Source: an uncultured delta proteobacterium
GTDB lineage: Bacteria; Desulfobacterota; Binatia; Binatales; Binataceae
NCBI GenBank assembly: GCA_963765675.1
Contig: CAVXXK010000005.1
Span: 4,957 to 68,956 of the forward strand
Length of the DNA: 64,000 bases
Reading direction: 5' to 3'
The position numbers and the translations under genes are program-made. Of this stretch, positions 1,320-22,402 are shown piece after piece (the first letter of the stretch is position 1; every line of letters starts with the position of its first letter). Under the pieces are notes generated by a model. It saw nothing but the letters and a program-made list of their open reading frames with translations. It ran no database searches and had not been told where the DNA came from.

Positions 1320-1814
1320 TTATCGATGTGACTGCGCAAGCCGCCGCATCGGACCGCCGGACTTACCCAGATTGTCTGTCTGTCCAGCTTGAAGACCGAA
1401 ATGTTGGACCGAGCCGAGCGCCGCCGGAAGCTCGGATCGAGAAGGAAGTTGGCCAACCATGCAAAACTCCAGCTTTTGCGCAAGGGCTTGGGCATTGGGA
1501 CCGGAGGTCATGTCGTCGTGATCGCCGGGTACCTCGTGCACCTCGACGCCTCCCGAGGCGAGTCCGCCCCAGCCTAACTGATAGTCCTTTATGCTTACCT
1601 GGGAATCCGGACGCGTGCGCAAAAGAGTCAAGTGTCCCGGATATAACTGAGGCGTATAGTGAGCGGCAGCGAAGGCGTTGATGTCATGCATAGTTCCAAT
1701 ATGTTGCGGAACGGTCCGTCCCAACGCACGGTAGACTTCATAAATGATTTTAGTGACCCGCTTCTTCACGGCCGTGCGCGCATACTGCCATCGCCCCGGG
1801 CCGCGCAGCACCAT
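1320..1814 (-). CDS. C-terminal half of the NRPS thioesterase domain, out of frame with 1750..6918 (frame change near 1830-1845)
   Basis: The 164-aa ORF contains the TE catalytic-His region (VHEVPGDHDDM). The nucleophile motif GYSFGG lies in the other frame, at the end of the 1722-aa ORF. The two ORFs overlap by 65 nt. Confidence 0.75.
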   Translation of the reverse strand: MVLRGPGRWQYARTAVKKRVTKIIYEVYRALGRTVPQHIGTMHDINAFAAAHYTPQLYPGHLTLLRTRPDSQVSIKDYQLGWGGLASGGVEVHEVPGDHDDMTSGPNAQALAQKLEFCMVGQLPSRSELPAALGSVQHFGLQAGQTDNLGKSGGPMRRLAQSHR

Positions 1815-4800: not shown

Positions 4801-6918
4801 CTGCTTTTTCCAGTAGCTGAGGTACGGTTCAAAGTCGGCATTTTTGAGCCACTCGCTCTGCCAGTGCGAAAAGTCCGCGTACTGGAGAACGGAATCAGAA
4901 AGCGGCGAAGCCAAACCCTGTGAGTATGCGTCGTAGAGCGTGGTCAATTCGCGAACCACGATTCCGCTGGTCCATCCGTCGCAAACTATATGGGGCATCG
5001 TGAGCATCAAGATGTGCTCGCGCTCCTCCAGCTGGATAAGTCCCGCGCGAAAAATTGGACCTTGCGCGAGATTAAATGGCCGAACTGCCTCCTCACGAAT
5101 CAATTCTTGCGCCCTAGATTCTCGCTCGGTCTCGGAGGCGATTCGGAGATCCACCACTTCTAAGCTCGCGTCGTAGGGCGGGTGAATCACTTGCATCGGT
5201 TCGTCGTTCAACACGGAAAAAGTGGTCCGCAGCATCTCGTGACGCTTCACCAGATCCGTAAGACATCGGCGAAGCACAGTCGGGTCCAAGGTACCACTGA
5301 CCCTGAGCACTGCCGGCATATTGAGCATCGGATTACCCGGCATCAACTGCTCGAAAAGCCAAAAGCGCTGCTGGTTGATAGTGATCGGAAGGGCGTAGCT
5401 ATCAGACGCGGGCGACTCCGTCCCATCAGAGGCGTTGAGTGCTGTGCCACAAGAAGAGGCGTCTAACGAGTCGGACGTTCCGCGATTCGGAGCTAACAGA
5501 CCATCTAGAATTGCGCTCGTTCGCGTCGCCGGGAGATCAGTAGCTGTTTCCGACTTCGCTGGAACCAGCGCCAGCTGAAGTTCTGAGATCCGCTGATCTG
5601 GATTTCCTGCGACGCGCTCGAGCGTACCGCGATAGTTATCGAGCAATCCGCCGATAGTGCTAGGTTCGAATAGATCAGTATTGTATTCGCACGAGAGACG
5701 CCACCCCTCTGTGCGCATCACCAGGAAAATATTCAGTTCGTAGGGCGCGCCCTGCGATTTCGAGGGTATTGTGGTCAGCGTGATCCCTGAAAACTCCAGC
5801 GGTATGACCGCGTCGCGCTCGCAAATGAAGTTCAGCGGACAAAGGCCATGATGGCTCGGATAAACTTGAGGCTGAACCTCGGCAAGCAATTGTTCAAAGC
5901 GAAGGTTCTGGTTCACAAGCGATTCGGTTGCAGTCTTTTGTACGCGGCGCAGCAATTCGCAAAAGCTTGGATCGCCGGAAACATCGAACCGGAGAATCAC
6001 CGTGTTGATAAATAATCCGACCAGCGGCTCGAGGTCCAGGCTATCGCGTCCCGCTACTTGCGTGGACACTCCGAAGCTTGTTTGCCGCGTGTAGTGAAAC
6101 ACGAGGATGGCGAGGGCGGCCGCTGTAATCTGGAAAAACGTGGCACCTTCTTGATTAGCTATATGACCAAGGGAGTCACTGAGTTCCATTGGAAGCAGCG
6201 TCGATACGATCGCGGAATTGTAGGTTGGACGTTCAGATCTTGGACGGTCCGTAGGAAAGGTCGCAACGGGAAGTTGTGTTAGCTGTGTTCTCCAGTAAGA
6301 AAGATCATTTTTTACTTGTGCATCCTGCAAATGGTTGTGTTGCCAGATTGCATAGTCACCGTACTGAATCGTAAGTGGAGCAAGGTGCGGCTCCAGACGG
6401 TGGGAATATGCCGTGTAGAATTCTGCAAGTTCCTTTGCGATGACGCCGATCGACCAGTAGTCAGCAATCGAGTGATGAATCGTGAGAGTCATCACATAGT
6501 CGCAATCGCCGGCCTGCAGAAGACGGGCCCGCAGCAGAGGTCCGGCAGCCAAATCGAAGTGCTGATGTGCTGCCTCGAGGCAACGGCGGTCAACCGTGTC
6601 GGCGCGCTGAGCTTCAGGGAGGTGTCGGAGGTCTTCCATGGATAGCGTCACCGCCATCGAAGGAGCGATGATCTGAGATACGCGCCCATCGACGGTCGCG
6701 AGATTGGTTCGCAGGACCTCGTGGCGCTGGACGATTCCTTGTAGAGAGCGCTCGAGTATGGCCGGATCGAGCGGTCCCCGAAGTGCAAACCGCACAGCGA
6801 GATTCCATGCCGGATTGCCCGGACTTAGGCGGTCCAATGCCCAGAAACGTTCCTGTGCGAGCGATGCGGGCAGGACGTAGGTATCTCCGTGATCGAGATT
6901 CGTCGCATCACTGCTCAT
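1750..6918 (-). CDS. non-ribosomal peptide synthetase, C-C-A(degenerate)-T-TE(N-terminal half)
   Basis: 1722 aa. C1 is aa 13-445 (HHSIADYWS; nt ~5584-6882). C2 is aa 507-945 (PHIVCDGWTSG; nt ~4084-5400). The A-like domain is aa ~965-1465 (nt ~2524-4026) and has degenerate core motifs. T is aa ~1483-1552 (FFHLGGHSL). TE starts at aa ~1563 (GYSFGG). Confidence 0.93.
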   Translation of the reverse strand: MSSDATNLDHGDTYVLPASLAQERFWALDRLSPGNPAWNLAVRFALRGPLDPAILERSLQGIVQRHEVLRTNLATVDGRVSQIIAPSMAVTLSMEDLRHLPEAQRADTVDRRCLEAAHQHFDLAAGPLLRARLLQAGDCDYVMTLTIHHSIADYWSIGVIAKELAEFYTAYSHRLEPHLAPLTIQYGDYAIWQHNHLQDAQVKNDLSYWRTQLTQLPVATFPTDRPRSERPTYNSAIVSTLLPMELSDSLGHIANQEGATFFQITAAALAILVFHYTRQTSFGVSTQVAGRDSLDLEPLVGLFINTVILRFDVSGDPSFCELLRRVQKTATESLVNQNLRFEQLLAEVQPQVYPSHHGLCPLNFICERDAVIPLEFSGITLTTIPSKSQGAPYELNIFLVMRTEGWRLSCEYNTDLFEPSTIGGLLDNYRGTLERVAGNPDQRISELQLALVPAKSETATDLPATRTSAILDGLLAPNRGTSDSLDASSCGTALNASDGTESPASDSYALPITINQQRFWLFEQLMPGNPMLNMPAVLRVSGTLDPTVLRRCLTDLVKRHEMLRTTFSVLNDEPMQVIHPPYDASLEVVDLRIASETERESRAQELIREEAVRPFNLAQGPIFRAGLIQLEEREHILMLTMPHIVCDGWTSGIVVRELTTLYDAYSQGLASPLSDSVLQYADFSHWQSEWLKNADFEPYLSYWKKQLQGRLPLLDLPGDRPLRPALVSRGATETVHIAGASVVAVKDFCKREEITTFMLFLAIFKLMLKRYTGQEDILVGSPVSGRTDDAESIVGSFAYPISLRTSLHGNPSFSELVHRIREVTLEALAHKDLPFRYLVDELQVEQIQGRNPLFQFYFFHQVAFLQTIQTQECRWTPITWHCSGTEFDLHLATFERDGEIVARLEYKPDLFDASTARRMLGHFQQIIDCVLCDPEQRINQIPILTTDESEMISRAGLGAATAKHEPALSRIESFARQKSEAVAIISGNETLTYGQLDHRASQLASRLVKVDLAPSRTIAICSDYLPDLVIGMLAAGKAGAAFMLLPADDSKNAGVGALNEHGIKAVITCRRWRKLFRRRGLQVVCVDETHVNAECAALRTSSKEDGARTAIIQLVSSTSSDSKLAQVSQRAFDVRAWTGVETYGLRAEDRIALINSTPAVELVFSSLIAGATIVFVPSTVLESDARYRQFVEGHRCSVLILPTRFWQRMILRGGKERRDFPQCVQKIVLYGDRPSKLAVAAFQRVARGQIRLLVSYGGVEVSHHAAIFEARSEGRVEDQALTLGVPSPGFAIRLLDENMQPVPAGVPAMICIAGPELASGYLGDEKSTAASFRFSKALNGTWFRTGELGRYLSDGKIDVLGPSSRHVNIGGFRTHVGELEAALMLEPSLSEVLAVPCGRASECQQVEVYAVVDARIAFSKPLSELEVRLKKRVAESFPDGPQVSQFRFVDSLPIDVDGHVSRSALATEDAIDSERTHLPKAHRDSLEAELIEIWEEVLGVRQIRVTDNFFHLGGHSLLAMRLFSRINQRWGTKLPLSTLLDTPSIQGLAEILRQDGWRPPSSSLVAIRHSGSLPPLYIISGLGGNVIRFNDLTRYLHPDRPLFALQPPGLDGSQPYLTRLEDMAAHYIREIKTKQPSGPYYLAGYSFGGLVTFEMGRQLIQQGDTIGLLALLDSPEWHYHWQSLKSMDARAKIGSLPVADRHGAARPGAMAVCAHGREEAGH

Positions 6919-6946
6919 AAACGAACCTCATACTGGATTGTTAGGC

Positions 6947-9900
6947 TCATGAGGAGCCAACCTTCTGATCCGGTACTATCGTTTGGCTTAACCTATACTT
7001 TGCGCGAGAAACTGGAACGATGGCTGGCATCGGGATGGTAGTCCCGTTTTGATTTTCGTTTTCGGCGTGCGCAAGCAACCCTTCGATCGTCCTGTACTTA
7101 AAAAACAACGGCGCAGCTACGCGCATGCCTGCCCTGGTTGCACGCGCTGCGATTTGAAAGATGTGCAGAGAGTCTGCGCCCAATTCGAATAGATCGTCCC
7201 GGATTCCGACCCTCTCCAAGTGAAGAATCTCGGCCCAGATCTCTGCCAGCGTTCTCTCAGAGGCGGTCCGTGGACCGACAAACTCATGACTGCGCGAGAA
7301 TTGAACCGTGGCCGGAGCTGGGAGCGCACACCGGTCGAGTTTTCCGTTCGGCGTAAGTGGCATCGAGTCCAGACGCACCACTGCGGATGGCAGCATATAG
7401 TCGGGCAGCTTCCCGATCAGAAATTCGCGGACTGCTGTAACGGTCAGCGCCTGCTGATTGGAGACCACATAGGCAACCAGTCTCCGGTCGCCAGGGGTGT
7501 CCTCACGAAGAATTACCGCGGCACCGGTCACTCCCGGATGCTTAGCCAGCGCCGATTCAATCTCTCCGAGTTCGATGCGGAAACCGCGCAGCTTCACCTG
7601 ATTGTCGAACCTGCCCACAAACTCAAGAGTACCGTCGGTCAGCCGCCGAACCCGGTCACCCGTCCGATACAGGCGCTCATTTCCGTCGACCCGGAATGGA
7701 TCTCGGATAAACTTCTCCGAGGTCAGCGCCTGCTGGTGAAGATATCCGCGCGCGACGCCGGCACCGCCGATATACAATTCGCCATCACATCCTATCGGAG
7801 CGAGCTGCCCAGCTTGGTCGAGCACATAGAACTGCGTATTATCGATCGGGAATCCAATTGGCACAGGACCCGGTCCAGGTTCAACTCGGATCGCGGACGA
7901 CCAAATCGTAGTTTCGGTCGGACCGTACATATTCCAAACGGAACTCGTCCGCTCCAACAACTGGGTTGCCAGCTCGCGGGATAGGGCCTCGCCGCCACAC
8001 AAAACCTTAAGCGTAGAACGTTCCGCCCATCCTGCTTCGATCAGGAGTGCGAACGTAACTGGGGTTGCCTGGATTGCCGTTGCGCCGGACTGGCGCAGGC
8101 GAGCGAGGAGCTGACTGCCATCGGACGCCTCCGCACGACTCGCAATGACCATTTTCGCTCCGACCGTAAGGGGCAGGAATATTTCCAGCGCCGCGATGTC
8201 GAACGAGAGCGTAGTGACCGCGAGCAACGTATCGTGGCAGCCGAGACCGGGGGTCTTGCTCATCGAGTGTAAGAGATTGACGACCGCACGGTGCGGAATC
8301 TCGACGCCCTTGGGTTTACCCGTCGAGCCCGAGGTATATATGACATACGCAAGGTCTTCGGAACTGACCGTGGGCCTCGGATCGTTTTCGCTGTCTTCTC
8401 GCGTAATCGCGCTCCAATGACTATCCAGGTAAAGAACCCGTCTGGAGCCCGGCGGCACGCTACGAGCCAGACTCTCCTGCGTCAATAATATCGGGACCTT
8501 CGCGTCTTCGAGCACGAAGGAGATGCGTTCTGCAGGATAGGTCGGGTCCATCGGTACATACGCGGCACCAGTTTTGAGGACGCCGAGCAAAGCCGTGACC
8601 ATGTCCAGCGACCGTTCGACAAATACCCCGACCAGCATTCCGACACCGACGCCGAGTTTCTGCAAATGCCGCGCTAGTTGATCGGCACGGTGATTCAGTT
8701 CGAAGTATGTTAATTGCCGGCCCTCGTACACCACCGCCACCGCGTCGGGAGTGCGCTGGGCCTGAGCCTCGAAAAGCTGATGGACGCAGCGTTCGGTCGG
8801 AAACTCGGCCTGAGTATCATTCCAACTGGCGATGATGCGCTGATGCTCGGCGGTCGATAGCAATGGCAGCGAGGAGATCCTCTGATTCGGATCAGCGCTC
8901 ATCGCTCCCAACAAAGTAGCGTAGTGCCCCAACCAACGCTCTATCGTTGCTTGGTCGAACAGGCCGGTATTGTAGTCGCAGTCGAGCATCAGGCCGTCGG
9001 CCGACTCAATGATGTTCAGAAATAGGTCCTGATTGACGAACGATTTGGCATTTGGCTCGATCGTCAGCTCGAGTCCGGAAAACTCGATGCCGGAACCCAT
9101 TCGCTCGAGGTTGAATTGAACCTCCGTCAGTGGCAACCGACTCGGATCGCGCTTGATCGGCAGCTTTCGAATCAAACGGCCATAAGTATAGTTCTGATGT
9201 TCGTACGCATCGAGGAGGGTACGTCTTACCTGAGCGAGATATTGCGCTGCTGAAAGACTATTCACGACCTCGCCGCGCAATGGCAGAAAATTGACACAAT
9301 GACCAACCAGGCTCTCGCCGTCGAGTGCCGCCTGTCCGGCAGCGGGAATTCCGATAACAATGTCTTCCTGCCCGCTGAGGCGGCTCAGTAGAATCTGAAA
9401 TGCGGCCAGTAACATGACAAATAGCGTGCATTTTTGCTGCGCGCCGGCCAGTTTGATATCTCGATAAGATTCCGCCGGAATCCGCAGACGACAGGTAGCT
9501 CCCTCATAGGATCTGGTGGCGGGTCGTGGCCGATCCAGAGGCAACTCGAGAAAAGCCGGAAGCGTGCTGAACTGCTCCTGCCAATAGGTCTCTAGAGCGG
9601 AAAGGTTGGAGCTCTGGAAGTGCTTCGCTTGCGACTCCGCGTATGCGCCGAAAGTCATCGGCTCTGGAAGCTCGTATGAGCGTCCCGCGCACGCCGCATT
9701 GTAGAGTCGGCGAACTTCGTCAAGAATTATATTTGTCGACCATCCGTCACACACGATATGATGCGCGGTGAATATAAAACGATACTCGCCGGGTCTGACT
9801 ACTATGAGATTTGCGCGGACCAGCGGACCGCGTTCGAGATCGAAGGGCGATCTTGCATCATCGGCAATGAATTGTGCCAGCCGCTTTTCGCGTGATTGAC

Positions 9901-12900
9901 CGTCAAGCGGTGTCAAATCCACAATCGGAATTACAAGCTTGGGGTCGGGCACGAATTGTTGGTATTCGCCGTTAGCGTCGAATTTCGCCCTCAGCGCCTC
10001 GTGCCGGGCAACTACCCTGTCGACGGCTGCGAGAAATGCTGCTACGTCGAGATTGCCGCGTAGCTTCAAAGTGAACGATTCGTTGTAACAACACGACGCT
10101 TGTTCACTGAGCTTTGCGGAGAGCCAAATCTCCTTTTGTGATTCAGTCAAGGGCGCCTGCCGCACTGGAACCGTGTGCGTGTTCTCCTTGATCGAAGTCA
10201 ATCCAGGTTCGGGTGGCTCCGGAGTAATGCCGTTGCCATTCAGGTGCGAAACGGAGCCATTGCGCGGCAGTTCCATGGGCTCCGAGTGCGGAGCCGGCAG
10301 GAATCCCGCAGCCTGGATCTCGAGCACGGACTCCCTGAACGCCTGAATCACCCGCGCGATATCTTCGTCGCTGTGCGCGGTGGTCAGAAACAGAGGAAAC
10401 CCTTCTTGAATATGTACTCCGCGTGCGCGCAAATAATAGTACAGCAGGCCTGCATGGATCAGTTCAGCAGGTAGCGTGAAATACGCAATTGATCCGAAGG
10501 TATCAACATGCGCCTGAACCTCCCGCTCTTCAAACAATGCATTCAAGGCATCGGCCATGTGCGTGGTTTTATTCGCGAGGTGCTCCCATAGTTCAGGTCC
10601 CGCGGTGTTTAAGTGATTGAGTACTGCAAATGCCGCGGCCAGGGCGAGTGGATGTCGCACGAATGTTCCTGCGAAGAACGTCACGCCCGTCTCAGGATAT
10701 GAATTGTCGCCGTAGTTCCACGTTCCACCGTCGAGCGCGTCCATAAAGGCGCTTGTGCCAGCAAGGACGCCAATTGGCAGTCCGCCACCCAGAACCTTTC
10801 CGTAAATCGCGAGGTCGGCCTTGATTCCGAACAGCGCCTGACAGCCTCCGCGATGCACCCGAAACCCTGTAACTACTTCATCGAAGATGAGCGCGGTTCC
10901 TGATTGCCGCGTGATACGTCTGACCTCCTTCAGAAAGTCGATCGGCTGCAGCGCGGGATGGCGGCTCTGAACTGGCTCAACCAGAACCGCCGCGAGTTCG
11001 CCTGCGTGAGCTTCGATGTAGCGCAGAGCTTCGGGCGTGCCGTAGTCAAGGACGATTACGTTCTCAACTTTTTCGCGCGGAATGCCGGGCGCCACGGGCA
11101 GTGAGCGCGGCCCATTTGGACCGTTGACGCCCTTGACCACTACTTCGTCGAACATTCCGTGATAGGCGCCCGTAAAGAGGACTATCTTGCTACGGGCTGT
11201 GATAGTGCGTGCCACCCGTAACGCCGCGGTCACCGCTTCCGATCCGGTATTGCAGAAGGTTACACGCTCCATCCCGGTCATGTCGCAGATAAGATCAGCG
11301 ACCTTGCCGGCTAACGGCGATTGCGGTCCGGTCTCATAGCCATGATCGAGCTGTTCGCGAATCGCCCGATTGACGAAATCCGGCGCATGGCCAAACATGA
11401 TAGGGCCGTATCCGTTTACCAAGTCGATATACTCATTCCCGTCAACGTCCCAGAGCTTCGAGCCGCTGGAACGAACGGTCACGATCGGGTAAACGATTTC
11501 CTTCCACTGCAGGCGAAATCCCGCGGCGACTCGAGGGTCAGCCAGGTGGCTCCGATGCTGCTGTGTCAGCCGCTTGGAGCCTGCGGTCTTCCTGCTGTAA
11601 CTCTCCACGAGTGCGCGCAGATGTTGTGATTGAAGAGGAGTTAGCTCCCGGGCTTTCCCTGCTTCAACCGGTACGAATGGAATAAATTTTCTCGGAGTAG
11701 GTCCGTGTAGTTTGACGGCCGCGGAGCCGTTCAATCCGTCCACAGGTTCTCGTTGCGCAGTGGCTACATGGACAGTTCTCGGGTCTGTGATCTGGTCAGG
11801 CACCGCGACGAATGCCTTGGTTTCCGTGTTCCTGAGAACCTCCAACTGTTTCGCCATCAGGTCCGAAAGCGTCTGAAGTTGGGTTTTGAATAGAAGCTGA
11901 AGATCCGGGCCGCCTCCAGCAGACGCAACAGCCGCATCTGCAGGGCGCGTCGCTGCGCGAGTTCCGCCCGCTGGCCCAGCTTCATTAGAGCACGGCAATT
12001 GGTGTTCGGAACGCGAGCTTTCTAGTTCGGCAATATCCGAAGCCCCTGAGGGTAGAGCTTGTGGCGGCAGTTTCTCATCAAGGTAGGCGGCCAGCGCGTC
12101 GAGAGTAGCCAGTTGATCGAGTAGTTGTCTGAACGTGATCTTCAGGCCAAACTCGGCGTGCAACATTTGCGAGACCTGGGTCAAAAATAGCGAATCGAAT
12201 CCGAATTCGAGAAAAGTAACCCCGCTGGCTGCGTCGCCGAGTCTGAGACCCGACAAATCCTCGAAAATACATTCCAGCCTCGACAGGATTCGTGCCTTGC
12301 GAGTCTCCAGTCGGGGCGACTGGATCGCCGTACCTTCTGAACTACCGGCCGCGCGCGCATCTTCGGGTCGCTGCCCATTAACAGATGCATGGAGGGAAGC
12401 CTTGTAGCTCTCAAGATCAGAACCAGATTTTTCGGTTGAGCTGGTCCGGGATGAATCTTCTTGGCCCGCAAGTGTGTCCGCGTTTCGCGCGGCGGGTCGC
12501 GGGCCGCACCAAAACCGCTTGCGTTCGAACGGGTAGAGCGGCAGCGAAACCCTGCGCCGCGAGTCGCCCGCATAGATTTGCGACCAGTTGGGTTGAGCCC
12601 CGTGCAGCCAGAGTTGGCCGAGAGCGTTCAGCACCGATTCCTCTTCGGTTTGCTGACCGTTACGACCGGGCATCGACGCAATCACGAGTTGATCAGGATT
12701 GTTCGCCTGATGCTGTCGCGCGAGCACCGACAGAGTGTTGCCCGGCCCGACTTCCAGCAGGGCGAAGTCTTCGGCCCGCAGTTTGGCTGCGCCGATTGAG
12801 AATCGCACCGGTAGCCGAAGATGATTCGCCCAGTATTCCGGATCGGTCGCTTCACGCGCCGTAATCCAGTCGCCAGTCACACTCGATAAAAACGGAATCT

Positions 12901-15151
12901 CGGGAATACTTATCCGCACCGGATCCAGTAACCGGAGGAAGGGCTCCCGAGCCGTATCCATCATGCTCGAATGGAACGCGTGAGAGGTCCGCAGCCGCTG
13001 GCAGACGATTCCCTCGCTCCCAAGCCGCTGCTCCAGTTCCGCGATCGCTTCGCAGGGCCCCGCGACCACGGTGAGTGATGGACCATTGACCGCCGCGAGG
13101 TTCGCAGCGGGACCGATAAAGCGCGCGACATCATCCTCGCTCAGTCGGACCGATAGCATCGCTCCCCGAGGAAGGTCGTGCATCAAGGCGCCGCGCCCGG
13201 CGACCAGCTTAAGCGCGTCCTCGAGAGAAAAAACACCTGCCATGCATGCTGCGACGAATTCGCCAATGCTATGGCCGATCATTGCCTGTGGACGAATACC
13301 TAATTGAAGCCAGAGCTGCGCCAATGCGTATTCGACGACAAACAGCGCAGGTTGCGCGATGGCAGTATCGTTGATTTCTTCGTCGGTTGGCAATGTATAG
13401 TTGGAATCAAACAGATTTCTCAGATTCGGTCCCGAGCCTGCGACGAGGATCTGCAGACAAATGTCGACTTGCTTCCGAAACTCAGGCTCGGCGAAGTATA
13501 GTTGCCGCCCCATCCCAACGTATTGCGATCCCTGTCCAGGGAACATGAATGCGACCGCGAGACGATTAGACGGTGTGATCCGTGTGAGTACTCGTCGGCT
13601 GCCGCCTGCCAGCACCGTTACCGCGTCAGCGGTGTCGTGAATCACGGTCATTCGACGGGCCTCGAAAGAATGACGGCCCATCATAAGTGTATATGCAACG
13701 TCGGCTAATTCAGCAGTCGGATTGGCCACCAGACTATCGGCCAAGTTCGACGTCGCCGCGTTGAGTGCGGCCTCGGTTTTGGCGGACACCAATATCAGGT
13801 GGGCCCCACGCCTCGACTTTGTGGCGAGAGCTTCCGGCGCCTCTTCCATGACTACATGCGCGTTTGTGCCGCCGATTCCAAAGGCGCTCACGCCCGCGCG
13901 TAGGGGCGTGGTGCCGCGCTGCCACGGCGAGAGGGCCGTGTTCACATAGAACGGCGAGTCTTCCAGATTCAGTTTCGGATTGGCGCTCTCGAAGTGCAAT
14001 GTCGGCGGCAACATCCGATGATGCAGCGACATCGCGGTCTTAATCAGCCCGGTCACTCCCGCCGCAACGTCCAGATGCCCAACGTTGGTCTTTGCCGTAC
14101 CCAGCGCGCAGAACTGCCGCCGCGTGGTCGAACGTCGAAAGGCCTGTGTCAGTGCGGCAATCTCAATCGGATCGCCGAGCGGAGTTCCAGTGCCGTGCGC
14201 CTCGATATATGAGATCGAGGCCGGGTCCACGCCGGCCGCGGAATGTGCCATCGCGATTGCGCTGGCCTGGCCGTCGACTCCTGGTGCGGTAAAGCCGACC
14301 TTTGCGGCGCCATCGTTGGTTACTCCGAATCCTTTAATCACGGCGTAGATCCGATCCCGGTCGGCAACCGCCTCCTGAAAACGTTTCAGGAGAACCACCG
14401 CGGCGCCATCACCGAAAACTGTGCCCTGGCTCGCGGCGTCGAAGGTTCGGCAATGACCATCGGGCGATACCATCCCTCCCGGCTCGTATAGGTAGCCGCG
14501 CCTCTGCGGAAACGTGATCGAAACGCCGCCGGCTAGCGCCATATCACATTGATAGTTCTGCAGGCTGAGACATGCCTGCGATACGGCGACCAGTGAAGTA
14601 GAGCATCCGCAGTTAAGTGAGAATGCAGGTCCGCGCAAGTTCAGTTTGTAAGCGACCCGGGTCGGCAGAAATTCGAAATTGCTGCCCAGCGTAGTAATAA
14701 AGTTACTTACCTGATAACCGGCCGTATACTGAGAGATGTCATCGCGATTCGAGCATACGTGTTGTGCGAAGTAGCTATTGAAACTGCACCCCGCGAACAC
14801 CGCGGTAATACCCGTGTACACCAGCGGGTCATAGCCGGAATCTTCGAACGCATGCCAGCAGCACTCCAAAAACATCCGCTGTTGAGGGTCGATCAGCTCA
14901 GCCTCTTTCGGATAAATGCCGAAGAACGCGGCATCAAACTTGTCGGCATCCTCGATGATCGCGCGCGCGCGCACGTAGTTGGGCATCCCGGAAACCGCTG
15001 CGGCGTCATCGATTTCGAGCTCCCCCGGCGCAAAGTGAGTGATCGATTCAACGCCCGCGCATAGGTTGCGCCAGAACTCGTTGATGTCCCGAGCTCCCGG
15101 GAATCTGCCGGCCATCCCGATAATCGCGATGTCAGTCAGAGCGTCACTCAT
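6947..15151 (-). CDS. hybrid PKS-NRPS megasynthase, KS-AT-ACP-aminotransferase-C-A(Gly)-T
   Basis: 2734 aa. KS is aa 6-437 (GCSTSL Cys183, EAHGTGT, NVGH; nt 13841-15136). AT is aa 532-835 (GHSIGE, HAFH = malonyl type; nt 12647-13558). ACP is aa 951-1027 (GFDSL; nt 12071-12301). The PLP aminotransferase is aa ~1170-1617 (NTGSEAV, IFDEVVTGFR, YGKVLGGGLPIG; nt 10301-11644). C is aa 1664-2095 (HHIVCDGWS; nt 8867-10162). A is aa 2120-2610 (YTSGSTGKPKG, YGPTE, YRTGD, GRFDNQVKLRGFRIELGEIE, NGKLDR; nt 7322-8794). T is aa 2627-2695 (LGADSL; nt 7067-7273). Confidence 0.96.
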   Translation of the reverse strand: MSDALTDIAIIGMAGRFPGARDINEFWRNLCAGVESITHFAPGELEIDDAAAVSGMPNYVRARAIIEDADKFDAAFFGIYPKEAELIDPQQRMFLECCWHAFEDSGYDPLVYTGITAVFAGCSFNSYFAQHVCSNRDDISQYTAGYQVSNFITTLGSNFEFLPTRVAYKLNLRGPAFSLNCGCSTSLVAVSQACLSLQNYQCDMALAGGVSITFPQRRGYLYEPGGMVSPDGHCRTFDAASQGTVFGDGAAVVLLKRFQEAVADRDRIYAVIKGFGVTNDGAAKVGFTAPGVDGQASAIAMAHSAAGVDPASISYIEAHGTGTPLGDPIEIAALTQAFRRSTTRRQFCALGTAKTNVGHLDVAAGVTGLIKTAMSLHHRMLPPTLHFESANPKLNLEDSPFYVNTALSPWQRGTTPLRAGVSAFGIGGTNAHVVMEEAPEALATKSRRGAHLILVSAKTEAALNAATSNLADSLVANPTAELADVAYTLMMGRHSFEARRMTVIHDTADAVTVLAGGSRRVLTRITPSNRLAVAFMFPGQGSQYVGMGRQLYFAEPEFRKQVDICLQILVAGSGPNLRNLFDSNYTLPTDEEINDTAIAQPALFVVEYALAQLWLQLGIRPQAMIGHSIGEFVAACMAGVFSLEDALKLVAGRGALMHDLPRGAMLSVRLSEDDVARFIGPAANLAAVNGPSLTVVAGPCEAIAELEQRLGSEGIVCQRLRTSHAFHSSMMDTAREPFLRLLDPVRISIPEIPFLSSVTGDWITAREATDPEYWANHLRLPVRFSIGAAKLRAEDFALLEVGPGNTLSVLARQHQANNPDQLVIASMPGRNGQQTEEESVLNALGQLWLHGAQPNWSQIYAGDSRRRVSLPLYPFERKRFWCGPRPAARNADTLAGQEDSSRTSSTEKSGSDLESYKASLHASVNGQRPEDARAAGSSEGTAIQSPRLETRKARILSRLECIFEDLSGLRLGDAASGVTFLEFGFDSLFLTQVSQMLHAEFGLKITFRQLLDQLATLDALAAYLDEKLPPQALPSGASDIAELESSRSEHQLPCSNEAGPAGGTRAATRPADAAVASAGGGPDLQLLFKTQLQTLSDLMAKQLEVLRNTETKAFVAVPDQITDPRTVHVATAQREPVDGLNGSAAVKLHGPTPRKFIPFVPVEAGKARELTPLQSQHLRALVESYSRKTAGSKRLTQQHRSHLADPRVAAGFRLQWKEIVYPIVTVRSSGSKLWDVDGNEYIDLVNGYGPIMFGHAPDFVNRAIREQLDHGYETGPQSPLAGKVADLICDMTGMERVTFCNTGSEAVTAALRVARTITARSKIVLFTGAYHGMFDEVVVKGVNGPNGPRSLPVAPGIPREKVENVIVLDYGTPEALRYIEAHAGELAAVLVEPVQSRHPALQPIDFLKEVRRITRQSGTALIFDEVVTGFRVHRGGCQALFGIKADLAIYGKVLGGGLPIGVLAGTSAFMDALDGGTWNYGDNSYPETGVTFFAGTFVRHPLALAAAFAVLNHLNTAGPELWEHLANKTTHMADALNALFEEREVQAHVDTFGSIAYFTLPAELIHAGLLYYYLRARGVHIQEGFPLFLTTAHSDEDIARVIQAFRESVLEIQAAGFLPAPHSEPMELPRNGSVSHLNGNGITPEPPEPGLTSIKENTHTVPVRQAPLTESQKEIWLSAKLSEQASCCYNESFTLKLRGNLDVAAFLAAVDRVVARHEALRAKFDANGEYQQFVPDPKLVIPIVDLTPLDGQSREKRLAQFIADDARSPFDLERGPLVRANLIVVRPGEYRFIFTAHHIVCDGWSTNIILDEVRRLYNAACAGRSYELPEPMTFGAYAESQAKHFQSSNLSALETYWQEQFSTLPAFLELPLDRPRPATRSYEGATCRLRIPAESYRDIKLAGAQQKCTLFVMLLAAFQILLSRLSGQEDIVIGIPAAGQAALDGESLVGHCVNFLPLRGEVVNSLSAAQYLAQVRRTLLDAYEHQNYTYGRLIRKLPIKRDPSRLPLTEVQFNLERMGSGIEFSGLELTIEPNAKSFVNQDLFLNIIESADGLMLDCDYNTGLFDQATIERWLGHYATLLGAMSADPNQRISSLPLLSTAEHQRIIASWNDTQAEFPTERCVHQLFEAQAQRTPDAVAVVYEGRQLTYFELNHRADQLARHLQKLGVGVGMLVGVFVERSLDMVTALLGVLKTGAAYVPMDPTYPAERISFVLEDAKVPILLTQESLARSVPPGSRRVLYLDSHWSAITREDSENDPRPTVSSEDLAYVIYTSGSTGKPKGVEIPHRAVVNLLHSMSKTPGLGCHDTLLAVTTLSFDIAALEIFLPLTVGAKMVIASRAEASDGSQLLARLRQSGATAIQATPVTFALLIEAGWAERSTLKVLCGGEALSRELATQLLERTSSVWNMYGPTETTIWSSAIRVEPGPGPVPIGFPIDNTQFYVLDQAGQLAPIGCDGELYIGGAGVARGYLHQQALTSEKFIRDPFRVDGNERLYRTGDRVRRLTDGTLEFVGRFDNQVKLRGFRIELGEIESALAKHPGVTGAAVILREDTPGDRRLVAYVVSNQQALTVTAVREFLIGKLPDYMLPSAVVRLDSMPLTPNGKLDRCALPAPATVQFSRSHEFVGPRTASERTLAEIWAEILHLERVGIRDDLFELGADSLHIFQIAARATRAGMRVAAPLFFKYRTIEGLLAHAENENQNGTTIPMPAIVPVSRAKYRLSQTIVPDQKVGSS

Positions 15152-15193
15152 TGCAATCGATTCCGTTTGGACTCCATCATTTGAATCCGCGGA

Positions 15194-17125
15194 TCACCCC
15201 GCGCGTCGCGACAGCATTTCGCGCTGACGCCGAGCCCGAAGTTGCAGATCGTTGCCGACCGGCGAAAATTGGCTGTCGCCGCTCAGATGCTCGGCGAGGG
15301 TCGCAACGGTCGGGTATTGAAACAGATCCGTGATTATCAACTTTTCGGCGAGCAAGCGCTGCAGTTTGGAGTGGACCTCGATCAGTTGCAGCGAATCACC
15401 ACCGAGGTCGAAGAAGCTCGTGTCCACCTCAACCGCCGGCAGATGCAGGACATCGCGCCAGACCGAAGAGATTGTCGTTTCGATTTTGCTCAACCGCCCC
15501 GTGGGTTCTCGATTGGATTGTGAGGCCACCGCGTCTTCGCGAAGCCGCACGAGCGCATCACGATCGATCTTGCCATTGCGAGTCAGCGGAATTTCAGCGA
15601 CCGCCACGAACGCCGCCGGGATCATATAGTGCGGCAGCTTCTCCATAAGAAATGCGCGCAATTCTTGCTGCGCGGGTGCAGGGAACGAATGCGGCGTTAC
15701 ATATGCGACCAACCGCTTTTCCTCGCAGGTATCTTTTTCCGCCACGACCACGGCATCGCGGATGGCCGGATGCTGGCGCAGGGTCTCGGCAATCTCACCG
15801 GGTTCGATTCGATATCCAAATATTTTGACCTGATCGTCCATGCGTCCCAGAAATTCAAGGGCGCCATCGGCGCGATACCGGACGAGATCGCCGGTGCGAT
15901 AGAGGCGCTGCGAGGACTCCGCGGCCCAGGCGGGCACCACAAATTTTTCCGCAGTCAGATCGCCCTGGTTCAAGTACCCTCGAGCGACTCCATCACCACC
16001 GATGTAGAGCTCTCCAACTTCTCCCACCGCCACCTGATTGAACTCGGAATCCAGCACCCACACCGGGGTTCCGGCGATCGGAAATCCGATTGGAACCGAA
16101 GGTCCTTCCAGATATTCCGGGTGCGCAGTAAGACACACCGCAAAGGTCGTCGCCTCTGTCGGGCCATAACCATTTACGAGCCGGCAACCGGGCAACGCCG
16201 CGACCGCGGTGCGAAAATGCGCAAGCGATCCCGAATCGCCGCCAGTTACTAACTGCTTGAGTCGGCAGAGTGCATCTGGATGATGATCGATCATCAGATT
16301 GAACAATCCCGCCGGAAGCCAGACTGTGCTGATTTCATAACGGCGAATGGCCGCCGCGATATCCTCGAGCGCCGGCGTCCCCGGCGGCAGGAGCACCAGG
16401 CTGCCCCCGTTCAGCAAGGGTCCCCAGATTTCAAGTGTTGCCGCATCGAAGCAGACTGGCGCTAACTGCATGAACCGCTGGCCGGCGTCGAACGATAGAT
16501 AGTCCGTGTTTTTCACCAGGCGAATGACGCCGCGATGTTCGATCAGGACGCCCTTGGGCGAGCCGCTCGAGCCCGAGGTGTACATCACGTAGACAAGGTT
16601 GTTAGCAGCGACCCGTGCATTGAGATTAGCTCCGTCGCGTAATCCGATCGCGGCTGCTTCGCGATCGATTAGCAACAGCTTTGAGAGCTCATCCGGCAGT
16701 GACCCGATGCATGAGGAATCGGTGATCACGATCGGCGCGCGCGTATCCCTCAGCATGAATGCAAGGCGCTTGCGGGGATAATCGGGATCAAGCGGAACGT
16801 AAGCGCCACCGGCTTTGAGTACCGCGAGCATGGCGACCACTAAGTCGAATGAACGGCGCAGACAGACGCCGACCAATACTTCAGCCTGCACGCCCTGTGG
16901 GGCCAGATGGCGGGCCAGGCGATTGGCGCGCTCATTCAACTCACGGTATGTGATTTGCTCATCGCCCAGGATCAGCGCGATAGCCTCGGGGTTGTGAGCG
17001 GCCTGCTGCTCAAACCATCCATGGACCGTAGCGAGATGACTCTTTTCCGTACGCCGCCCGATGTCAGCCATTCGGCATTGGCCGTACCTCGATAGTGACG
17101 CTGACGATTCCGCACCCTTTACCAT
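15194..17125 (-). CDS. stand-alone NRPS adenylation-thiolation (A-T) protein
   Basis: Core motifs are YTSGSSGSPKG, GYGPTE, GELYIGGDGVARGY, YRTGD, GRMDDQVKIFGYRIEPGEI and NGKIDR, followed by the carrier motif LGGDSLQL. The ORF track extends to 17296 and overlaps the upstream gene. The ATG at 17125 (7 nt after the upstream stop) is preferred; the ATG at 17191 is an alternative. Confidence 0.9.
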   Translation of the reverse strand: MVKGAESSASLSRYGQCRMADIGRRTEKSHLATVHGWFEQQAAHNPEAIALILGDEQITYRELNERANRLARHLAPQGVQAEVLVGVCLRRSFDLVVAMLAVLKAGGAYVPLDPDYPRKRLAFMLRDTRAPIVITDSSCIGSLPDELSKLLLIDREAAAIGLRDGANLNARVAANNLVYVMYTSGSSGSPKGVLIEHRGVIRLVKNTDYLSFDAGQRFMQLAPVCFDAATLEIWGPLLNGGSLVLLPPGTPALEDIAAAIRRYEISTVWLPAGLFNLMIDHHPDALCRLKQLVTGGDSGSLAHFRTAVAALPGCRLVNGYGPTEATTFAVCLTAHPEYLEGPSVPIGFPIAGTPVWVLDSEFNQVAVGEVGELYIGGDGVARGYLNQGDLTAEKFVVPAWAAESSQRLYRTGDLVRYRADGALEFLGRMDDQVKIFGYRIEPGEIAETLRQHPAIRDAVVVAEKDTCEEKRLVAYVTPHSFPAPAQQELRAFLMEKLPHYMIPAAFVAVAEIPLTRNGKIDRDALVRLREDAVASQSNREPTGRLSKIETTISSVWRDVLHLPAVEVDTSFFDLGGDSLQLIEVHSKLQRLLAEKLIITDLFQYPTVATLAEHLSGDSQFSPVGNDLQLRARRQREMLSRRAG

Positions 17126-17132
17126 GCGCACG

Positions 17133-18824
17133 CTACGGCCCCAATTTGCCCGCGGTCTGTTCGCGTTCAATTCCGAAATCGCTTCTGACATTTCCAGCTC
17201 TAGCGACGCGGGTACGGTCTGCCCGACTCGGCAAGACTCTCTCCTTGCACCCGAATAATCTCTCCGCGACGATGCCGCGTTGGCAGGCCGTTGCAAGGAG
17301 CCGGTCTGATTCCACTATTGGATTGGAGAGATGGTCGTAGCGAATACTGCTGACGAACTGGAGCCACGGCTCCTGGCCCATCGCATATACGTAGAGCTCC
17401 CGGCAATTGAATTGCTCAACCAGGCCAAGCGCGCTCGAGTAGTCTGACGCGTTGGCTCGCCGCGACTGATCCATCGCTCGTTCCAACCGGCGGGTCAGCA
17501 ACGGACCATAGATCCAGCTTAGCGGTGCGCCGTCACATTCCATGCCGATGAACATCGTCTCGACATCGCCAATTTGATCGTGCACGTTCCGATACAGCGC
17601 GGGACTCAGGTTGCGCGAGTCCGCCAATAGCAGCATCGAATGGCAGCCACCCCGAACCAACCATGCGGTTTTGCTTCGGATAGCAAGGTCGCAGTGTTCA
17701 CCAGTGAATGGGATTGACTGGATGGAGCCGGAACCTAAGTCGATCGTTTCCATTTCGTCGATTTCGCGCACGTGTTTGAAGCCGCATGCCTCAAGGATCA
17801 GTTTCAGCGAAGGATCCTGAAGGGCACCGCCCGAGTTTTTAGGTACCAGGATGGTCCCGATTCGGTCCCGCAACTGGAGCAAAGTTTCCAGCAGGACATG
17901 ATCTTGATGCGCGTGCGTGAGCAGGACAAAGTCGATCGATTCAGGCAGGTCTGCGTAGGTGAATCGCTCGGACGCACCGTCGAAAGCGTAACCGATCGCC
18001 GGATCGGTGAGAATCGAGAAGTCACTGCTTTCAATAAGGACACATGCATGGCCGAAATATTTCCAGCTAACACCGGGCCCTTTATAGCTTGTAGATTTGC
18101 GGGGCTTTTCGTCTGTCAGGAATGACCTCAGGATAGCGTTGTTATGCTCTGATAGACCCAACACATCCCGAATTTCGCTGAAGGATGCCGGCTGGGACTT
18201 GAGGCGATATAAAGCGTCCACTGCGGCGCCGGCAAAGCGCACCCTCCAATTGATCGAATCCGGACTGGCGAGCCGCGGGGTGCTGAAAATGAACGGCCGA
18301 CCGTCGTCCTTGATTGCCGAAAGCATCAAGCTCTGGCCGTTCGGATCGTAGTATCGACTTGCATAAAGCAGCCGTTCGATAAACCTGTACGACGCCTGAT
18401 TTTGAAGATCGTAGCCGAGCTCAACGTAGCCCTGGAGCGCGGCCGGGACTAAACGATACAAGGGCTCCAGCGAGTACCCTTTCGCGTGATCGGTCAGCAA
18501 TGAATCGAGCTGGCCAATCGCGGCGGATAGCTCAATCAAATTATGCCGCGCAGCAATCGTATGATCGCGCAAAGCGGAAATTTCGGCGATTCGGGCATGC
18601 TCGAAACTCATGAACGGGCCGCCCGCCAGGTTTGGATCGCGTGCCGCTGCCGCGTGGCCATCTGGGTTGCTTAAGTAAGACTCCATTATCCGCAGATGAC
18701 GCTCAGTCAGATTGCGGGCGGAGGTTGCAGGCGCGACCAAATGCGGCCAAGCGTACCACTGATCGATCAGCGGTTCGACTGCGATATTTGGCCGCAGGTA
18801 TAGCTTGTCGGTACTACGATGCAC
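17133..18824 (-). CDS. MBL-fold diiron protein, CmlA-like amino acid beta-hydroxylase candidate
   Basis: 563 aa, with a ~250-aa N-terminal domain followed by a metallo-beta-lactamase fold. It has THAHQDH (H304, H306, D308, H309; nt 17898-17915) and downstream acidic residues E376 (FTGEH), D402 (LLADS) and E429 (GMECDG). It sits immediately upstream of a stand-alone A-T, like the CmlA/CmlP pair. Confidence 0.6.
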   Translation of the reverse strand: MHRSTDKLYLRPNIAVEPLIDQWYAWPHLVAPATSARNLTERHLRIMESYLSNPDGHAAAARDPNLAGGPFMSFEHARIAEISALRDHTIAARHNLIELSAAIGQLDSLLTDHAKGYSLEPLYRLVPAALQGYVELGYDLQNQASYRFIERLLYASRYYDPNGQSLMLSAIKDDGRPFIFSTPRLASPDSINWRVRFAGAAVDALYRLKSQPASFSEIRDVLGLSEHNNAILRSFLTDEKPRKSTSYKGPGVSWKYFGHACVLIESSDFSILTDPAIGYAFDGASERFTYADLPESIDFVLLTHAHQDHVLLETLLQLRDRIGTILVPKNSGGALQDPSLKLILEACGFKHVREIDEMETIDLGSGSIQSIPFTGEHCDLAIRSKTAWLVRGGCHSMLLLADSRNLSPALYRNVHDQIGDVETMFIGMECDGAPLSWIYGPLLTRRLERAMDQSRRANASDYSSALGLVEQFNCRELYVYAMGQEPWLQFVSSIRYDHLSNPIVESDRLLATACQRGIVAERLFGCKERVLPSRADRTRVARAGNVRSDFGIEREQTAGKLGP

Positions 18825-18944
18825 CGTGGTTTACGCCTTACTTCGTCATTAGAAACCTGATCTCATAAGCCATCCTCTGTCGCAGTTCCGCACCACGTGC
18901 CGCCCGTCCTCAGCGGATTGCAGACAAAGCTCCTCGAGCGGTGC

Positions 18945-19802
18945 CTAACGCGCCGCCGATGCACCAACGGCTCGGGAGGGTCGTACAAGTCGTGAAGGAT
19001 CAAGCTGCGTGAGCGGTTGCCGCCTCTCGGGCTTTGAATAGGCGGGCACGGCCTGAACCTGGCTTCCGACCTGTGTTTGGTTCCCGTTTGTGCCGAAGTT
19101 CCACTTGTTCAGCAAAAGGTATTGCTTCCCGCTGCGGCTCAGCAGTCCTGCTTCGGCCATTTCTGCGACCAGGCGGCTGACCATTGGTCTCGAGCACCCC
19201 ATCATCTCAGCCAAATCCTCATGTGCGAGGTCAGGAATCAGGATGGTTCCGCGGGCATCCTTTACCCCGAACCGCAGCGCCAGATCGCTCAGCACCACCT
19301 CAAGGCGCTGCCAGAAAGGCAGGTTGAGCAGTGTCGCGAACCAACGAAGATTCTGTGACCAGAAGGTATTTAGCGCCTGCAGAATTTCCACCAGCACCTC
19401 AGGTTCCAAGCCGCGTAGCAGGCGCGCCACTTGGTCACGGTTGATCAGCGCCACCGTGCATTTGCTCGCGCTTTGCACCTCGAAGAGCTGCGCACGTCGC
19501 GCCTTGGTATCGATATAATCGGCGTAGCCGATCAGTTCACCAGGTCCAGCCAAGCGCACCAATGTGCGGTTGCCGTCAGCGACCGAGCAATAGACCTTGA
19601 CGAAGCCGCTGAGAACGCAACCGAACAGATCATTGGTCGAGCCCTCGCTCAGGACCAAGACGCCTTTCTCGAAATTGACCGCTAAGTTGCGCTCGACGAT
19701 TTCGTCCGTGAATTCGGCGGAGATACCCCACGTAGCAAGATTGTTCCGAAGATGGGAAAACGCGTCGGCATGCATGCGGTTTGGGTTTGAGTTCAACTTC
19801 AT
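18945..19802 (-). CDS. Crp/Fnr family transcriptional regulator
   Basis: It has a cNMP-binding-like beta-roll (LVLSEGSTNDLFGCVLSGFVKVY...LAGPGELIGYAD) and a C-terminal HTH (HEDLAEMMGCSRPMVSRLVAEMAEAGLL). The start is set at ATG 19802, which is preceded by the strong RBS GGAGGAGAGG. The track ORF extends to 19994. Confidence 0.85.
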   Translation of the reverse strand: MKLNSNPNRMHADAFSHLRNNLATWGISAEFTDEIVERNLAVNFEKGVLVLSEGSTNDLFGCVLSGFVKVYCSVADGNRTLVRLAGPGELIGYADYIDTKARRAQLFEVQSASKCTVALINRDQVARLLRGLEPEVLVEILQALNTFWSQNLRWFATLLNLPFWQRLEVVLSDLALRFGVKDARGTILIPDLAHEDLAEMMGCSRPMVSRLVAEMAEAGLLSRSGKQYLLLNKWNFGTNGNQTQVGSQVQAVPAYSKPERRQPLTQLDPSRLVRPSRAVGASAAR

Positions 19803-20409
19803 TTTCGCCTCTCCTCCAAGCGCGATTATTTCAATTTTGGCATTTCCACCTCCACCTCCACCTCGTTGGCTTAGAGCGCCTATAAATACCTTTGAATGCC
19901 TATCACTTCTATTAGCGGCCTTACGGCTGCACACTCTACCTCCGAACTGCTTTGTATGTCCACGGTTAACAGTGGCTCTTCGATACCGCAGCATTAAATA
20001 GATAGATTTAGCTCCCCGTGTGACTAAAGGTGACGATAATGAGTAAAGTAAATCCAGCCTAACGGATCGAGCCGGATAGTCAATGAAAAATTTACGTACA
20101 TCGTGACCATCAGACCTCAGAATTTAGTGAAATATGACAGAGGAATTAGCGTCATGTTTCGAAAAGAGCTCCTGTCGGCTCGAGCCTGTCATCGTCTTGG
20201 TCTCCTCTGCTTGAAGCGATTCTCCTCAGCTATCCGCTCGCGTCGCCTACGCCGCGCAGCGTAGCCCTCAAGCTCCATAAAGCCCGCAGCTTCATGGCGG
20301 ACTGCCAGACATTGGATCTCAACGGCGGGTATTGTTAAGGCAGAGGAGCAACGGCGATTTTTGCTCAAAGTAGCAACGCCGAACCCGTCCGGATTTGAAG
20401 GAGCCAACG

Positions 20410-22198: not shown

Positions 22199-22221
22199 CC
22201 TGTCGCAACCGGGGAGGTCGC

Positions 22222-22390
22222 TCAGGCGCGAATCTTCTCGATCCAGGCGGCGAACCGTCGATCCGATCTCGACGATTTCGAGCCCGAGCTCCGCGGGCGC
22301 AAGCGCCGCGAGAGTCTTCGCAACCAGACGATTATACGAACCCTTGCGAAGACTCCCGACCAGCACTGCTACTTCCCGTCTGGCGCTCAT
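22222..22390 (-). pseudogene. NADPH-dependent FMN reductase remnant (internal deletion plus frame change)
   Basis: MSARREVAVLVGSLRKGSYNRLVAKTLAALAPAELGLEIVEIG matches the N-terminus of the family. A second frame then gives ...RRFAAWIEKIRA-stop, which resembles the family C-terminus. Only ~170 nt are available here, against the ~540 nt a full gene needs. Confidence 0.4.
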
Positions 22391-22402
22391 CGATCTCACC
22401 AG

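Follow-up and report, generated by a model that had tools for sequence, protein, structure and literature searches.

A predicted beta-hydroxylase and a free-standing amino acid-loading protein are encoded side by side in the genome of an uncultured delta proteobacterium of the Binataceae, in a 64,000-nucleotide stretch of contig CAVXXK010000005.1 (assembly GCA_963765675.1) that is referred to here as the window. The hydroxylase, a 563-aa protein encoded on the minus strand at 17133..18824, belongs almost certainly to the CmlA/FrsH family of non-heme diiron enzymes. Its gene is followed on the same strand by that of a stand-alone adenylation-thiolation (A-T) didomain, the loader, at 15194..17125. 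We propose that the loader carries a branched-chain aliphatic amino acid, most likely valine, that the hydroxylase acts in trans on the tethered residue at C-beta, and that the hydroxylated unit primes the ketosynthase (KS) of the adjoining polyketide synthase (PKS)/nonribosomal peptide synthetase (NRPS) hybrid. For this explanation as a whole, from family membership through valine loading and in-trans beta-hydroxylation to KS priming, we give a probability of about 0.72.

Family, fold and metal ligands of the hydroxylase

The hydroxylase gene starts with GTG and encodes two domains. Residues 9-239 (nt 18108-18800, minus strand) match the CmlA_N domain (Pfam PF18456) over profile positions 1-231 of 232, with an E-value of 1e-83 and a score of 280.7 bits against a cutoff of 25. 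Pfam describes PF18456 as a 'diiron non-heme beta-hydroxylase N-terminal domain'. A metallo-beta-lactamase (MBL) fold domain follows at residues ~255 to 530, and three MBL families of Pfam, including Lactamase_B_2 and Lactamase_B_3, match at residues 255-410. The combination of an N-terminal domain with an MBL fold, which the original prediction had read from the letters, is therefore present in the protein.

Comparison with proteins of known structure gives the same picture. A phmmer search of the PDB sequences returned FrsH (8a90) with an E-value of 1e-132 and CmlA (4jo0, 5kik and 5kil) with E-values of ~1e-122, in both cases over the full length. These values are far outside chance, and the next match after the CmlA entries was NAPE-PLD at 5.6e-4. 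An AlphaFold2 model built on the homologue alignment has a mean predicted local distance difference test (pLDDT) score of 89.4 and a predicted template modelling score (pTM) of 0.90, and pLDDT falls below 50 only at residues 1-3 and 546-563. The structure search against CmlA that the original prediction had called for was made with this model, using Foldseek against the PDB. FrsH 8a90 was matched with a template modelling (TM) score of 0.91 (query) and 0.97 (target), a root-mean-square deviation of 1.6 A and 42% identity, and CmlA with 0.87 (query) and 0.93 (target). Entry 8a90 is FrsH according to its title in Foldseek ('Crystal structure of FrsH') and is a 100% match to the protein of Chromobacterium vaccinii MWU205. 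All other MBL-fold proteins aligned over the core only, with query TM scores of 0.36 or less. By every sequence- and structure-level criterion, the protein is a member of the CmlA/FrsH family.

In the general MBL scheme, motif 2 is HxHxDH and motif 4 is an Asp, and in CmlA a Glu stands in place of His at motifs 3 and 5. Each of these features is found in the hydroxylase. The HxHxDH motif (THAHQDH; H304, H306, D308 and H309) is encoded at 17898..17915 and corresponds to H305, H307, D309 and H310 of CmlA. E376 (FTGEH; codon 17697..17699) corresponds to E377, and both wild-type CmlA and FrsH have Glu there. D402 (LLADS; codon 17619..17621) corresponds to D403 at MBL motif 4 and is taken as the bridging carboxylate, and E429 (GMECDG; codon 17538..17540) corresponds to E430 at the motif 5 position. 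All of these codons lie on the minus strand. The seven residues are invariant in 61 of 61 homologues with 54-83% identity, and they face identical residues in both CmlA and FrsH (8a90). The seven candidate ligands of the original prediction thus stand, with their motifs where it had placed them.

The same prediction held that each ligand is numbered exactly one lower than its CmlA counterpart, and this agrees with the alignment of the two proteins, which is free of gaps over residues 304-429. The offset is seen directly at one position. The Foldseek title of 5kil is 'CmlA beta-hydroxylase E377D mutant', and the sole changed residue, the Asp in 'lpflgDhgdl', faces E376 of the window protein. 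For the other six positions, the one-lower numbering follows from the gap-free alignment. These six residues are presumably iron ligands in CmlA, as Makris et al. 2013 reportedly found and as the general MBL motif scheme suggests. On this basis, the hydroxylase would hold a carboxylate-rich site with two irons.

The names carried by homologues in the databases favour another reading, in which the protein is a hydrolytic MBL of a thioesterase-, lactonase- or nuclease-like kind. More than 7000 proteins match at an E-value of 1e-20 or better, mostly from metagenome-assembled genomes (MAGs) of Acidobacteriota, and homologues are named 'L-ascorbate metabolism protein UlaG' (JGI) or 'MBL fold metallo-hydrolase' (NCBI). 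A weak match to an NCBIfam 'metal-dependent hydrolase' model (29 bits against a cutoff of 144) points the same way. Against this, the only full-length matches are to CmlA and FrsH, the protein has a CmlA_N domain and shares with CmlA the Glu that stands for His at MBL motifs 3 and 5, and hydrolytic MBLs reach only the low core-only TM scores given above. The original prediction had named placement among hydrolytic MBLs, with the carboxylates unaligned, as the outcome that would overturn it. The profile, sequence and fold searches all led to CmlA and FrsH instead, with the carboxylates aligned, so the hydrolytic reading was rejected and is effectively refuted. Through such names, thousands of sequences are systematically under-annotated.

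The C-terminal tail of the hydroxylase is about 30 residues longer than the family consensus, and close relatives have 543-548 aa. The tail region (17133-17296, minus strand) overlaps candidate upstream starts of the loader gene, a TTG at 17296 and an ATG at 17191. Since close relatives are shorter and the tail overlaps these starts, it is uncertain where the hydroxylase gene really ends and where the loader gene starts.

The stand-alone loader and its association with the hydroxylase

The loader has 643 aa when counted from the ATG at 17125, and Pfam finds AMP-binding, AMP-binding_C and PP-binding domains in it. The hydroxylase stop codon lies at 17133-17135, so that the spacing of 7 nt given in the original prediction is correct for this ATG; with a further in-frame ATG at 17071 in addition to the two upstream starts mentioned above, the exact start is unsettled. 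Both domains of the loader appear intact. The adenylation (A) domain has canonical core motifs A3-A10 (YTSGSSGSPKG, FDAATLE, NGYGPTE, YRTGD, GRMDDQVKIFGYRIEPGEI and NGKIDR), and the equivalents of Asp235 (D235) and Lys517 (K517) are present, unlike in the degenerate A domain of the terminal NRPS described below. The carrier (T) domain matches PP-binding with an E-value of 1e-15 and has the phosphopantetheine-attachment Ser in the sequence GGDSL, which starts at residue 575.

The specificity code was read by anchoring on A4 (FDAATLEIW), A5 (NGYGPTEATTF) and A10 (NGKIDR). Residues 227, 228, 231, 269, 293, 295, 319, 327, 328 and 519 give DALWVGGTFK, which reproduces the hand-derived code of the original prediction. 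An orthologue in the related locus L081 is 72% identical and has the same code; other orthologous loaders read DALWLGGTFK, DAFWLGGTFK or DAFFFGVTFK. We take DALWLGGTFK and DAFWIGGTFK to be Val codes and DAFFYGITFK to be an Ile code. Of the codes tabulated in PMC9113097, DAFWLGGTFK stands for Val and DFWNVGMVHK for Thr, and the loader code is identical to the former at 8/10 positions. The A1 domain of LgrA was tried as a Val reference, but its aligned residues gave an atypical code and were of no help. Together, the code and its orthologues suggest that the loader probably activates valine, and Ile or another branched residue would also be compatible with it.

At the level of the code, then, the aliphatic substrate put forward in the original prediction holds up, since the orthologous loaders are of Val/Ile type. 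What does not hold is the view that such a substrate is unusual because the characterised members of the family act mostly on aromatic residues. That view is out of date. FrsH hydroxylates T-bound Leu in vitro and accepts Ile (PMC7794379), HynC hydroxylates T-bound Leu and Tyr in vitro (PMC8252469), and Val is the proposed substrate of CrpA (PMC12181424).

The association of the two genes was followed in other genomes by searching the window proteins with tblastn against 169 fetched loci. The hydroxylase gene lies directly upstream of the loader gene in 41 loci, a count that includes duplicates of single contigs, and it always abuts the loader gene. The codes of the loaders in these loci are DALWLGGTFK (19), DAFFFGVTFK (10) and DAFWLGGTFK (7), together with single Val/Ile-like variants. 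In other loci no hydroxylase was found, its absence being judged within the fetched 10 kb. The loaders there read DMYWFGVVWK or DMYWFGVLWK (9 loci), DAFWLGGTFK (8), DAFWIGGTFK (4), DALWTGGVFK (2) and DFWNIGMVHK, a Thr code (1). In five more loci, including one with a Thr-code loader and three with DMYWFGVVWK loaders, the upstream sequence was too short to judge. Thus, the hydroxylase accompanies branched-aliphatic loaders only, and never a Thr-type or DMYW-type loader in the 10 judged loci with such codes.

The gene order extends beyond the pair. In this cluster family, the hydroxylase and the loader are followed by a protein with the order KS-acyltransferase (AT)-acyl carrier protein (ACP)-aminotransferase-condensation (C)-A(Gly)-T and then by a C-domain protein. 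Loci found with the hydroxylase and loci found with the terminal NRPS share contigs in at least eight cases, and the four-gene core is contiguous there. The closest relatives of the window cluster are L081 (82-87% identity) and L001/L099 (65-74%); a metagenome scan with the terminal NRPS found relatives at 40% identity or less only. Clusters of the family are widespread in soil Acidobacteriota and also occur in MAGs of Binataceae, Gemmatimonadota, Planctomycetota and Acetobacteraceae.

A minimal variant of the cluster, L142, bears on the target of the hydroxylase. It consists of the hydroxylase, the A-T loader, the hybrid and a lone 506-aa C domain (13180-14700) that is homologous to the first of the C domains in the terminal NRPS; there is no T-thioesterase (TE) part there. 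The only other aminoacyl carrier in L142 holds Gly, which has no beta-carbon, so the residue on the loader is the only plausible aminoacyl substrate. The presence of a lone C domain suggests release by condensation with a free nucleophile in clusters of the L142 type. Together with the conserved hydroxylase-then-loader order, this argument favours the in-trans action that was originally predicted, and the residue bound to the loader is very likely the target of the hydroxylase.

Sister clusters with the same hybrid and no hydroxylase were also seen (L106 3198-5114, L134 3180-5087, L163, L149 and others), with loaders that read DMYWFGVVWK or the Thr code DFWNIGMVHK. Among cultured organisms, a distant version of the cluster was seen only in Lichenicoccus roseus KEBCLARHB70R (L136, NZ_VCDI01000010.1). 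Its version has a Val-type A-T, a KS-AT-ACP-aminotransferase hybrid and a terminal NRPS that is 28% identical to that of the window, and no hydroxylase is found nearby.

The assembly line and the alternatives

The hydroxylase and loader genes are part of a co-oriented run on the minus strand (454-19994) that encodes a regulator, the hydroxylase, the loader, the PKS/NRPS hybrid, an NRPS and a methyltransferase. The hybrid (6947..15151; 2734 aa) has the Pfam domain order KS-AT-ACP-aminotransferase (class III)-C-A-T, which is conserved in relatives. Its catalytic motifs are intact, with GCSTS, HGTGT and NVGH in the KS domain (Cys/His/His kept), GHSIG and HAFH in the AT domain, and HHIVCDG in the C domain. 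The HAFH motif suggests that the AT domain uses malonyl-CoA. Read by motif anchoring, the A domain of the hybrid has a Gly-like code of about DILQLGMIWK; at position 299 the MAFFT column showed C instead, owing to a shift of one residue.

The domain content and gene order point to the following pathway. The loader would adenylate an aliphatic L-amino acid with a branched chain, most likely valine, and tether it through a thioester bond to the phosphopantetheine arm that the loader itself carries. The hydroxylase would then act in trans, using O2 and two electrons to hydroxylate C-beta and to yield 3-hydroxyvalyl-S-T. Both steps are proposed by analogy with CmlA, FrsH and HynC and from the conserved gene context. 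By collinearity, the 3-hydroxyvalyl unit would prime the KS domain of the hybrid, a hand-off that the gene order and the domain content make rather probable. The hybrid would extend the unit with malonate, and its class-III aminotransferase would turn the beta-keto group into an amine. The resulting 3,4-diamino-5-hydroxy acyl chain would be joined to Gly by the C-A-T module, and the terminal NRPS would process the chain further.

The terminal NRPS (1750..6918, minus strand; 1722 aa) has the Pfam domain order C-C-A*-T-TE, in which A* is degenerate. Its tandem C domains (4039-6918, minus strand) carry HHSIAD (C1) and PHIVCD (C2). In the PDB they match Txo1/Txo2 and TycC best, with 200-237 bits. 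For the C_modAA domain of AmbE (7r9x), the score against C2 is only 75 bits, and the C1 list does not include it at an E-value cutoff of 1e-10. An identity of C1 or C2 as an epimerization (E), cyclization (Cy), X or C_modAA domain was therefore rejected, since both resemble ordinary C domains.

These domains matter for one alternative, in which the hydroxyl group is transient and a specialised C domain dehydrates beta-hydroxyvaline to dehydrovaline. This route has been proposed for Val in cryopeptin, where CrpA would act together with a C_modAA domain (PMC12181424), and the extra C domain of the terminal NRPS is without an obvious job. However, the loader feeds a KS by gene order and not a C domain, and the ordinary character of C1 and C2 argues against a dehydrating domain. 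We consider such a dehydration improbable, and a retained hydroxyl group is preferred.

The A* domain occupies residues ~960-1480 of the terminal NRPS (2479-4041, minus strand). It is without the glycine-rich P-loop of A3, the FD of A4, the Pro-Thr of A5 (YGGVE) and the GRxDxQVK of A8 (GPSSRHVN), and A10 has His instead of its Lys. All homologues examined (42-59% identity) show these losses too, and their C, T and TE domains are strongly conserved. A* therefore looks like a conserved pseudo-adenylation domain. As a result, the T domain of the terminal NRPS (T3) must be loaded in trans or used unconventionally.

It follows that the hydroxylase could act on a different or an additional carrier, for example on T3 charged in trans by the A domain of the loader. 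The degeneration of A* across the whole family would call for such an external loader, and members of the hydroxylase family are able to serve several modules, as FrsH does with FrsA and FrsD and HynC with modules 6 and 7. Yet variants like L142 keep the hydroxylase and the loader and have no A*-T-TE part, so that T3 cannot be the conserved target, and the constant adjacency of the hydroxylase and loader genes also speaks against it. We hold this alternative to be quite unlikely, although a shade less so than dehydration, and the loader-bound residue remains the preferred target.

In the terminal NRPS, a frameshift of one base at about 1835-1837 (…aagatcgga|t|cgctaccgg…) breaks the TE domain in two, ahead of the conserved GDHD; in relatives of the L081 or L098 type the TE is uninterrupted. 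The C-terminal half of the TE domain in the window lies in another frame at 1320..1837 (minus strand), carries GDHD and includes a 164-aa open reading frame (1320-1814). In a tblastn search, the C-terminus of the homologue P0122 aligned in frame -2 as far as 1837 and continued in frame -3 between 1835 and 1323. The frameshift could be a pseudogene mutation or an assembly error. Among public reads, related soil metagenomes share at most 20% of the sampled words, and their contigs do not reach across position 1836.

A third alternative follows from this frameshift, namely that the genes of the pair are intact and the pathway is non-functional in the source organism, so that the pair is a remnant. 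The position of the frame switch within the TE domain supports it, as does the length of the homologues, which at 1810-1897 aa are 90-175 aa longer than the 1722 aa found here. On the other side, one surplus base in a metagenome assembly could be an artefact of the assembly, the other domains are intact, and the 164-aa continuation is 65% identical to P0122, which would make any decay very recent. We regard a remnant as unlikely, but as a more serious possibility than the two alternatives above.

Several points weigh against the proposed explanation. The closest characterised enzymes are ~42% identical to the hydroxylase, and its function is read from homology and genomic context. The substrate call hangs on a 10-residue code that differs at two positions from the nearest documented Val code. 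Twelve related clusters have Val-type loaders and no hydroxylase gene within 10 kb, which means that hydroxylation is not obligatory for the assembly line. No reductase or ferredoxin gene is evident adjoining the hydroxylase in the window. An externally loaded T3 leaves scope for a second hydroxylase target, and with the split TE the pathway may be dead in the source genome.

Further genes lie at or near the ends of the cluster. At one end, a methyltransferase of the TIGR04325 family (454..1314, minus strand; NCBIfam E-value 3.9e-59) is a likely tailoring gene, and its homologues (32-72% identity) adjoin the terminal NRPS in many relatives. The window begins at position 1, so that cluster genes beyond the methyltransferase fall outside the view. 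At the other end, a Crp/Fnr-type regulator (18945..19994, minus strand; Pfam cNMP_binding and HTH_Crp_2) lies directly upstream of the hydroxylase, and L081 has two Crp/Fnr-type genes upstream, one of them 79% identical. A luciferase-like monooxygenase is found near the cluster both in the window (21190-22473, plus strand) and in L081, where the region with this gene and the regulators is 5311-9975.

Polysaccharide and glycosyl-transfer genes recur as neighbours of the cluster in relatives. They include Poly_export, Wzy_C, Polysacc_synt_3 flippases, glycosyltransferases of families GT2 and GT4, a PMT_2-like membrane transferase and GtrA (L001 1648-9967; L106 190-1758; L134 35-1495; L092 18979-22749; L089 19500-20198; L142 14697-21573). 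A Cupin_8/JmjC-type gene is also recurrent near relatives. The product might be glycosylated or bound to an envelope glycan. In the window no polysaccharide genes were found between 20 and 64 kb, a region that encodes ATP synthase subunits, a glycogen phosphorylase-like protein, esterases and other proteins. This places the right border of the cluster near the Crp-type regulator.

Comparison with known systems and meaning of the cluster

FrsH, of the FR900359 pathway of Chromobacterium vaccinii, is the closest solved structure and shares both the two-domain architecture and the set of ligands. It serves the C-A-T modules FrsA and FrsD, after which a starter C domain N-acylates the product, whereas the window has a free-standing A-T without a C domain, with valine as the predicted residue and a KS next in line. 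CmlA, of the chloramphenicol pathway of Streptomyces venezuelae, is the prototype of the family, with seven identical ligands offset by one. The substrate of CmlA, L-p-aminophenylalanine, is aromatic, and the partner in the window is predicted to carry an aliphatic residue. CmlP has an A-T-reductase organization without a C domain and ends in reductive release without chain extension, whereas the residue loaded in the window appears to start a PKS/NRPS line. Closer in setting are HynC (hypeptin), CrpA (cryopeptin) and KasD (kasumigamide), which are encoded by CmlA-family genes inside NRPS clusters, like the gene in the window; KasD is proposed to act on Phe. These three act on modules within multimodular NRPSs, and none of them feeds a KS-AT-ACP-aminotransferase module, as is predicted for the window enzyme.

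The use of a free-standing loader has precedents outside the family. In SyrB1/SyrB2, CmaA/CmaB and BarD/BarA/BarB, a free-standing adenylation-carrier unit likewise presents an aminoacyl thioester to a non-heme iron enzyme before the assembly line. The tailoring enzymes of these three systems are cupin-fold halogenases of the mononuclear Fe(II)/2-oxoglutarate type that act on gamma or delta carbons, and not diiron proteins with an MBL fold. The hybrid also has parallels. Hybrids of the MycA/ItuA/McyE type have the same domain order as the 2734-aa protein, convert a beta-ketoacyl into a beta-amino acyl unit and join it to an amino acid. The starter of MycA and ItuA is a fatty acid that enters through an acyl-AMP ligase. 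In contrast, the loader of the window has an amino acid-type code with D235 and K517 present, and the predicted unit is a vicinal 3,4-diamine with a 5-hydroxyl group.

The enzyme itself adds little that is new. It is an ordinary and well-preserved member of a known family, and a Val partner fits with what has been established or proposed for FrsH, HynC and CrpA. The difference from the characterised cases lies in the setting, in which a free-standing A-T apparently serves as the loading module of a hybrid of PKS and aminotransferase, and the orphan clusters of this family come almost exclusively from soil bacteria that have not been cultured. No account of this cluster architecture turned up in a limited search of the literature, and we know of no characterised pathway with a 3,4-diamino-5-hydroxy acid building block. 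The cluster context is more interesting than the enzyme, with its conserved degenerate A domain, its tandem C domains and the frameshifted TE in this copy.

A more speculative possibility is that the pair opens an undescribed family of products. The starter would be a tertiary alcohol (3-hydroxyvaline or 3-hydroxyisoleucine) that primes a PKS and gives a 3,4-diamino-5-hydroxy acid, and the chain would be finished by a pseudo-adenylation module or by a lone releasing C domain, perhaps with attachment of the product to a glycan or to the envelope. We consider this tentative, and on balance doubtful.

The co-variation of hydroxylase and loader type may hint at the needs of the pathway. In one or two sister clusters the loader has a Thr code, and the residue would be already beta-hydroxylated. 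The signal is weak because of the 12 Val-type clusters without a nearby hydroxylase gene. For annotation, a family of more than 7000 sequences, mostly labelled 'UlaG' or 'MBL fold metallo-hydrolase', gains one further member that can be assigned with confidence. The pair of a hydroxylase and a Val/Ile-type A-T is a marker for a coherent family of orphan clusters in soil bacteria that have not been cultured, which gives it value for both annotation and genome mining.

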